Positions 1 through 1,359 of a stretch of DNA of 29,394 nt are shown here, piece after piece. Numbering within the stretch: the first letter of the stretch is position 1; every line of letters begins with the position of its first letter. Origin of the DNA: a virus (taxonomy: Duplodnaviria > Heunggongvirae > Uroviricota > Caudoviricetes); the IMG/VR virus record IMGVR_UViG_2690316131_000018; one strand, 5' to 3'. Both the position numbers and the translations under genes were made by a program. The notes beneath the pieces were generated by a model that searched no databases, was not told where the DNA came from, and saw only the letters and a program-made list of their open reading frames with translations.

Positions 1-72
1 GAAAATCTCTTTTCGGGTCTGACGGCGCTTAGTGCTGAATTCACTATCGGCGAAGGTGAGTTGATGGCTCAT
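1..72 (-). CDS. IS5-family transposase (InsH-like), first 24 codons only, cut by window edge
   Basis: My translation of the - strand gives [24 protein letters not shown], matching the N-terminus of IS5 transposase. Confidence 0.7.
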
Positions 73-140
73 GATGTCCCTCTGGGATGCGCTCCGGATG
101 AATATGATGATCTCATATCAGGAACTTGTTCGCACCTTCC
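1..140 (-). mobile_element. IS5-family insertion sequence, one end only (remainder beyond window start)
   Basis: Read on the - strand from 140: terminal repeat GGAAGGTGCGAACAAG (125-140), then a transposase ATG at 72. The sequence closely resembles the IS5 left end as I recall it. CTAA at 141-144 fits the IS5 target motif. Confidence 0.75.
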
Positions 141-1359
141 CTAATGCTTTCAGTTCTTCATCTGGCGGCAATAAACCAAGCTTTTGCATTTCAACCTTCA
201 CCCGATTTAATACAGTTCGCATCGCCTGCGCCGTTTCCTGAACAACAGGATTAGCATGCACATCACCGCTTCGCATAGCATTCCCAACCTGCTGACGAAA
301 TGAATCAAAACTCATGTCACCACCATCAGCTTTATACTTTGCGTATGCCTGTTTATTTCCGACAACAACAGCAGCTTCTTCACGCTGCCATCCACGTGTA
401 CGGGTTTCTACAGCTACCGGTGTTTCAATCCCCCTTTCATTTCCTTTAAGGGTGAAATTATTTTCGGCTAACTCCAGCGTTGTTTTTCGCACTGTCTTGG
501 ACGGAGACTCCATTAACCTTGTCAAAGGAGTAAGATAGCTCCCTGCTTTCCATGCAGCCTTTCCAACCACCCCACCGGAAACAGGGGTTAAATCATCCAG
601 AGTCGCTGTATCAATTTTCATAGCACCAACACTACCACCATCAGAAAGCGAAGCGGCAGCCCTGTCAGTCGCTGATGTAATGCTCATATTATCAAGAGCA
701 TCAGCAACCTCACGCGTGGCTGCAGCCCGGACGGATGGCGAAAGCGCAACACCAGCACTGGCAAACACGCCGCTCATCATCGCACCCGCTGCAATGTGAG
801 CGGCACTTTCACCCCATGAGCGTGTTATTTGCTGATTATTCAGCACAACCTCGCTTAATGCTGTACCGGCTGCACCAATCGCAATCTGTGAGCCAATACG
901 CGCCAGTGCCCCTCCTTGAGCACCAGGGATAAACATTGACGCAACAGTAACCGGATCCATTCCCGCAGCAATACTGGCAAGGGTTCCAACTACGCCAGCA
1001 TCAGACAATAAACGTCTGTCTTCATTTTCATCATCTATCTGCTGCTTAATCCACGCCGTTTCCTCTGGCGATCGGGAATCTGCAAATTTCGCCCCCCAGT
1101 ATTCATAACCGTGCAACTCATTTTTATCAGCATATGGGTTATAACCTTCGACCGGTTCAAACTGTCTGGCTGGTCGGAAAAAACCAGCCAGAATATTGTT
1201 CTGTCGCATTGCAGCCCCCCATACGGAAGGCTCCGGTGGCAATGGCTCAGGATTAGCCCCTTCCGGAAGGGCAACATCAAACCCAGTTTGTTCCGGCAAA
1301 ACATTACCTGACGGGATCAGTCCGTTATTAAGATCTTCAGCTTGTGCATAAACTGGCAT
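118..1359 (-). CDS. internal virion/ejection protein; 3' end replaced by IS5-derived sequence (probably truncated)
   Basis: 413-aa ORF whose start overlaps the stop of the upstream gene (TAATG). The last ~7 codons and the stop lie inside the IS element (<=140). Confidence 0.55.
   Translation of the reverse strand: MPVYAQAEDLNNGLIPSGNVLPEQTGFDVALPEGANPEPLPPEPSVWGAAMRQNNILAGFFRPARQFEPVEGYNPYADKNELHGYEYWGAKFADSRSPEETAWIKQQIDDENEDRRLLSDAGVVGTLASIAAGMDPVTVASMFIPGAQGGALARIGSQIAIGAAGTALSEVVLNNQQITRSWGESAAHIAAGAMMSGVFASAGVALSPSVRAAATREVADALDNMSITSATDRAAASLSDGGSVGAMKIDTATLDDLTPVSGGVVGKAAWKAGSYLTPLTRLMESPSKTVRKTTLELAENNFTLKGNERGIETPVAVETRTRGWQREEAAVVVGNKQAYAKYKADGGDMSFDSFRQQVGNAMRSGDVHANPVVQETAQAMRTVLNRVKVEMQKLGLLPPDEELKALGKVRTSS

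Follow-up and report, generated by a model that had tools for sequence, protein, structure and literature searches.

The window, by which we mean the whole stretch of 29,394 nucleotides analysed here, is an arm of a TL-2011b-like prophage that runs from the integrase, whose start codon lies at base 29394, to an insertion sequence (IS) at the opposite edge (Table 1). It corresponds to the draft contig CYDD01000008.1 (GCA_001284925.1) from the second base of that contig onward, without a single mismatch in 11,359 nt. Since the window starts one base into the contig, the IS piece is at the very end of the assembled sequence, as is typical when an assembly breaks within a multicopy repeat. The phage genes with homologue support are all found on the minus strand for about 13 kb. 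In the late operon, the tail genes are followed by genes whose products are an internal virion protein of 154 aa, a member of the T7 gp14 family of 191 aa and an SLT-domain protein of 905 aa, and after these comes the gene that is interrupted by the IS. The stop codon of the 905-aa gene overlaps the start codon of the interrupted one (TAATG).

Table 1 Coordinates in the window of the features described in the text
Feature	Position	Strand	Details
ISKpn26-type IS5-family element, transposase-proximal end	1..140	-	Last 140 nt of the element, IS positions 1057-1196
IS transposase, first 24 codons	1..72	-	Continues past the left window edge; from translation; annotated CDS 592-1572 of the reference copy L004
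Published IS5 transposase promoter hexamers	107..135	-	-35 gtgcga 135..130, 17-nt spacer, -10 gatcat 112..107
16-nt terminal inverted repeat GGAAGGTGCGAACAAG	125..140	-	Single match in the window, 0.03 expected by chance
IS-derived ORF tail	118..140	-	Last two bases of Gly407, KVRTSS, stop TGA 120..118
CTAA target tetranucleotide	141..144	+	Single copy in uninterrupted alleles
Truncated internal virion protein gene	118..1359	-	Codons 1-407 native, six IS-coded codons, TGA
Intact internal virion protein gene, 905 aa, SLT lytic transglycosylase domain	1359..4076	-	Pfam SLT 30.1 bits; phrog_1044; 99% identity to TL-2011b gp37
Opal codon in the gene of the 823-aa tail protein (gp34 homologue)	6839..6837 (gene 5118-7586)	-	TGG to TGA, codon 250
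Amber codon in terL (large terminase subunit homologue)	15569..15567 (gene 14838-16310)	-	CAG in TL-2011b to TAG, codon 248 of 491

The IS end was compared with E. coli records by megablast. It matched 2259 of them, 2153 at an identity of at least 99%, and was identical to ISKpn26 copies at 140/140 nt. The matched copies are annotated as "IS5-like element ISKpn26 family transposase", the name ISKpn26 being that of the NCBI PGAP annotation (WP_000019435.1). On a complete reference copy of 1196 bp (L004, 445-1640) the segment maps to the very end of the element, and the rest of the IS falls outside the window and the contig edge. The preliminary description of this DNA, made before any database search, had placed the end of the IS terminal repeat at position 140, and this is indeed where GGAAGGTGCGAACAAG, read from 140 to 125, meets the last base of the complete copy. 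This stretch matches exactly the repeat characteristic of the IS5 family, GGAAGGTGCGAA(T/C)AAG. Only one IS end is present here; the opposite end of the reference copy bears GGAAGGTGCGAATAAG. The transposase starts with an ATG at 72..70 of the minus strand, in the same orientation as the late genes of the phage. Its 24 codons within the window are identical to those of the reference copy, whose complete product (326 aa) scored 362.6 bits against the NCBIfam model NF033581 (IS5 family transposase), for which the cut-off is 140.

The assignment to the IS5 family that had been proposed therefore stands, with the refinement that the element, judged by these alignments, is of the ISKpn26 type, a name that rests on the PGAP annotation. 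With ISKpn26 (IS5 family, IS5 group) it shares the 140/140 nt, the terminal repeat, the start of the transposase and the kind of target (CTAA), the difference being that the catalogued copy is complete and the window displays one end only. The IS5 of E. coli K-12 (insH; IS5A, 1195 bp) has in common with it the family, the 16-nt ends, the preference for Py-T-A-Pu targets and the promoter hexamers at the transposase end, but the two are only 91% identical overall, and over the terminal stretch 123/141 aligned positions match. IS5 proper was rejected on account of this identity of just 91%.

At the junction, homology to TL-2011b starts at base 140/141 and continues rightward with 98.8% identity. 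The C at base 140 also fits the phage base that precedes CTAA; the full IS copy shows it to be the last base of the element. The intact allele, as found in TL-2011b (L001, 4002-4005) and in a prophage of E. coli 2015C-4498 (L005, 6002-6005), reads ...CTGGC-CTAA-TGCTTTCAG, with a single CTAA at the same point and no IS. The target of IS5 is described as Py-T-A-Pu, with CTAA among the listed targets, and the tetranucleotide is duplicated upon insertion (PMC5493358, PMC11894529). The CTAA next to our IS end fits this consensus, and both the published list and the single copy in the intact alleles bear out the earlier suggestion that it is the IS5 target. Actually, the motif is rare in this DNA (91 occurrences of CTAA/TTAG, counting both strands of 29.4 kb), so that finding it directly at the IS junction by chance would be expected with a frequency of about 0.3%.

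In the phages RCS47 and phi456, which are unrelated to this one, we found IS5-type copies whose alignment with positions 1-150 of the window extends for 10 nt beyond the IS end (ctaatgcttt), with 98.7% identity. This extension may be due to chance or may hint at a target preference wider than CTAA.

The interrupted gene gives an ORF of 413 aa. Its residues 1-407 are 99% identical to gp38 of Escherichia phage TL-2011b (YP_007001989.1, 1004 aa) and the two proteins diverge thereafter. The IS splits codons 406/407 of the 1004; Gly407 is kept, with GGC changed to GGG, and the element contributes just six residues (KVRTSS) to the ORF. TL-2011b has the same gene order, with the T7 gp14-family protein and the 905-aa SLT protein preceding gp38, and the difference lies in the window copy, which has no residues 408-1004 and ends in KVRTSS. 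That the 413-aa ORF runs into the IS, takes its C-terminus from it and is truncated had been read correctly from the DNA, as KVRTSS, the TGA behind it and homologues of 963-1007 aa make clear. Not borne out was the idea that the IS had entered the 3' end of the gene. The break lies at 40% of the gene length, at the cost of 597 C-terminal residues, 59-60% of the protein.

The homologues of this protein, from Escherichia, Citrobacter, Salmonella, Serratia and Klebsiella, cover the mentioned range of lengths and none of them ends at the truncation point. The alignment to full-length homologues that had been advised as a check thus gave a clear answer, with residues 1-407 of 1004 aligning. Among the 120 best protein relatives, 115 have at least 960 aa. 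Furthermore, 79 of the 80 loci kept from IMG/VR viral contigs match residues 1-1004, the lone exception being cut by the end of its contig. A naturally short isoform was considered and rejected, since the relatives in both the protein and the IMG/VR scans are full length. The part that is missing here is conserved across genera to the same degree as the part that is retained (median identities of 73% and 76%, respectively).

The stump matches phrog_342, annotated as "internal virion protein with endolysin domain", with E = 2.9e-75 over residues 24-401, and the intact homologue matches the same family with E = 4.8e-210 over residues 24-1002. Sequence searches with the 1004-aa protein gave no match in Pfam, NCBIfam or PDB (PDB chains with E up to 1). 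From the PHROG annotation and the gene order, the product is predicted to be an internal virion protein of the core or ejection type. The 413-aa stump is probably non-functional. The exact chimeric protein is recorded in two NCBI entries, CTV28741.1 and CTV52277.1, which deserve to be labelled as IS-truncated fragments and not as genuine 413-aa proteins.

The phage had been compared with T7-like phages and this we can correct. Between positions 141 and 25000 the window is 97.5% identical to TL-2011b over 78% of the length, and from position 4030 onward phiV10 and PAS61, both Uetakevirus, show 97-98% identity. On the basis of sequence similarity, the phage classifies as a temperate TL-2011b-like podovirus related to Uetakevirus (the epsilon15/phiV10 group). 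There is a likeness to the gp14-gp15-gp16 genes of T7, in that a gp14-family protein precedes a pair of very large proteins, of which one has an SLT domain. The resemblance to T7 ends there, however. In T7 the SLT domain is in the last of the internal core proteins, whereas in the window it is in the middle one. The match to the T7_gp14 family (Pfam PF24072) is limited to the neighbouring 191-aa protein. Similarity of the 1004-aa protein to T7 gp15 or gp16 was sought in Pfam and among PDB chains with E up to 1 and none was found, so that it differs from the T7 proteins in having no sequence match to any solved structure, theirs included. The phage of the window also differs from the T7 group in being temperate and related to Uetakevirus. 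Hence the argument drawn from the length of the last internal core protein in T7-like phages led to the right expectation, a protein much longer than 413 aa, but only by analogy, as the phage is not one of them.

Of the internal virion protein genes, the two largest (141-4030) match TL-2011b at the DNA level but not the phiV10-type phages. The contrast between this segment and the one from 4030 onward points to mosaic exchange of the ejection-protein module.

Simple insertion of an ISKpn26-type element into a CTAA, truncating a virion gene of about 1004 codons, is very probably the whole explanation of what is seen at this edge. The 1196-bp element would have moved by DDE transposition into the tetranucleotide within the gene that closes the late structural operon in an E. 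coli prophage. With codons 406/407 split in this way, translation would continue for six codons into the IS and stop, and the product would be a 413-aa stump from which 597 conserved residues at the C-terminus are missing. The late operon of TL-2011b ends with gp38, and the genes that come next are encoded on the other strand. The terminal position of gp38 means that no polar effect is expected and just one protein would be lost. Beyond the IS, a second CTAA and the remainder of the gene should follow. The expected far junction is ...GCCTGGCCTAA-GGAAGGTGCGAATAAG..., which can also be written as ATAGCTTGCCTGGCCTAA abutting GGAAGGTGCGAATAAG. When we simulated such an insertion, the far IS end provided an ATG in frame, 24 nt from the border of the element, opening a fragment of 607 aa that begins MTCLFAPS-L406...

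The position of the IS piece, exactly at the end of a contig in a draft assembly, might suggest that 140 nt of IS were misjoined to the phage and that the real gene is intact. We regard such an artefact as extremely improbable. The identical junction and its 413-aa chimera are found in the two NCBI entries and also in assemblies of other runs from Logan, which makes five contigs, and the independent assembly of one junction several times rules out a one-off misassembly. The break, moreover, falls precisely at the terminal base of the IS, adjoining a canonical CTAA. A larger rearrangement deserves more attention, although we consider it unlikely. After the insertion, a further ISKpn26/IS5 copy could have taken part in a recombination or transposition event that deleted or moved the distal segment of the prophage, that is, the rest of gp38, ant/arc, the O-acetyltransferase gene and the lysis cassette, leaving one IS-phage junction only. 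Recombination between IS copies is well documented in E. coli (PMC5009759). The reference copy L004 has unlike flanks, CTAA at one and CAAG at the other, so events of this kind do occur. The searches for the distal side could be read in the same direction. Exact-pattern scans of the genome_contigs and metagenome_contigs collections with the seen and the predicted far junction (four scans) gave 0 matches. In a collection of 15 billion proteins that does contain the N-terminal chimera, none of 14 constructed C-terminal fragments was present; they were built with ATG, GTG or edge-partial starts and with the C-termini found in TL-2011b, 2015C-4498 and the two nearest IMG/VR relatives. As an exact-sequence look-up this last is a weak negative.

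These negatives say little against the simple insertion, however, because exact look-ups fail upon a single residue difference or another choice of start, and short-read contigs always break in a multicopy IS; the five public contigs that include the junction break off within the element. Transposition usually results in a simple insertion that duplicates the target, and this also speaks against the rearrangement. Among complete E. coli genomes the junction was found in 0 of 5426, and all 45 that carry this gene region read through it, with one CTAA at this point and without an IS. Very improbable too, in our opinion, is a role for the truncated products, the stump or the 607-aa fragment being expressed and poisoning the ejection complex of incoming related phages. 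If true, a prophage gene would be undergoing domestication into a defence factor, with the IS insertion as one of the steps.

The preliminary description had also mentioned outward promoter activity as something that the IS end could supply. IS5 is indeed a known activator of adjacent operons such as fucAO, glpFK, bgl and flhDC (PMC11894529, PMC5493358), but at fucAO this is due to a fusion promoter from which transcription proceeds across the IS in the direction of the transposase (PMC11894529), which in our case leads away from the window. The hexamers of the IS5 transposase promoter, separated by a 17-nt spacer and described as poor (PMC11894529), were located in the IS end (Table 1) and by analogy would form a putative transposase promoter reading into the element. 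A scan for consensus promoters and terminators in positions 1-600, on both strands, found nothing. It did not call the hexamers either, which fits their published description as a poor promoter. In addition, past base 140 the plus strand is the antisense strand of the structural genes, and given the minus-strand orientation of the phage genes for about 13 kb any outward transcript would be antisense. A regulatory effect of the IS end on the neighbouring phage DNA thus appears highly improbable and the suggestion finds no support at this end.

The IS insertion had been counted as a third inactivating lesion, and this holds, for the amber codon in terL and the opal codon in the tail gene are both present besides it. 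The amber codon splits terL into ORFs of 247 and 242 aa. With nonsense codons in terL and in the gene of the 823-aa tail protein, the prophage would be non-infectious even apart from the stump, and we infer that it makes no infectious particles. The insertion is common to several isolates, and one of the Logan contigs (L003) has the same IS junction together with an intact tail gene. It follows that the IS insertion is older than the opal mutation, which provides a small relative timeline of prophage decay, with the IS insertion first and the tail opal later.

Related prophages in the complete E. coli genomes NZ_CP122712.1, NZ_CP074872.1, NZ_AP042506.1 and NZ_AP042594.1 carry IS3-family elements or ISEc8 in the same structural block, so that the disruption of this module by IS elements is recurrent and ordinary. 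The window is one more example of the IS-disrupted defective prophages of E. coli and does not differ substantially from them. The finding is already known in kind, a case of ordinary prophage decay and not a new type of system, and its importance lies mainly in annotation, where the prophage should be marked as defective.

In the region of the replication genes, at 21854-22002, there are six to seven iteron-like direct repeats (TCCCGTTTTTGGG...) with a spacing of 18-24 nt, an arrangement that looks like a replication origin of the lambdoid type.
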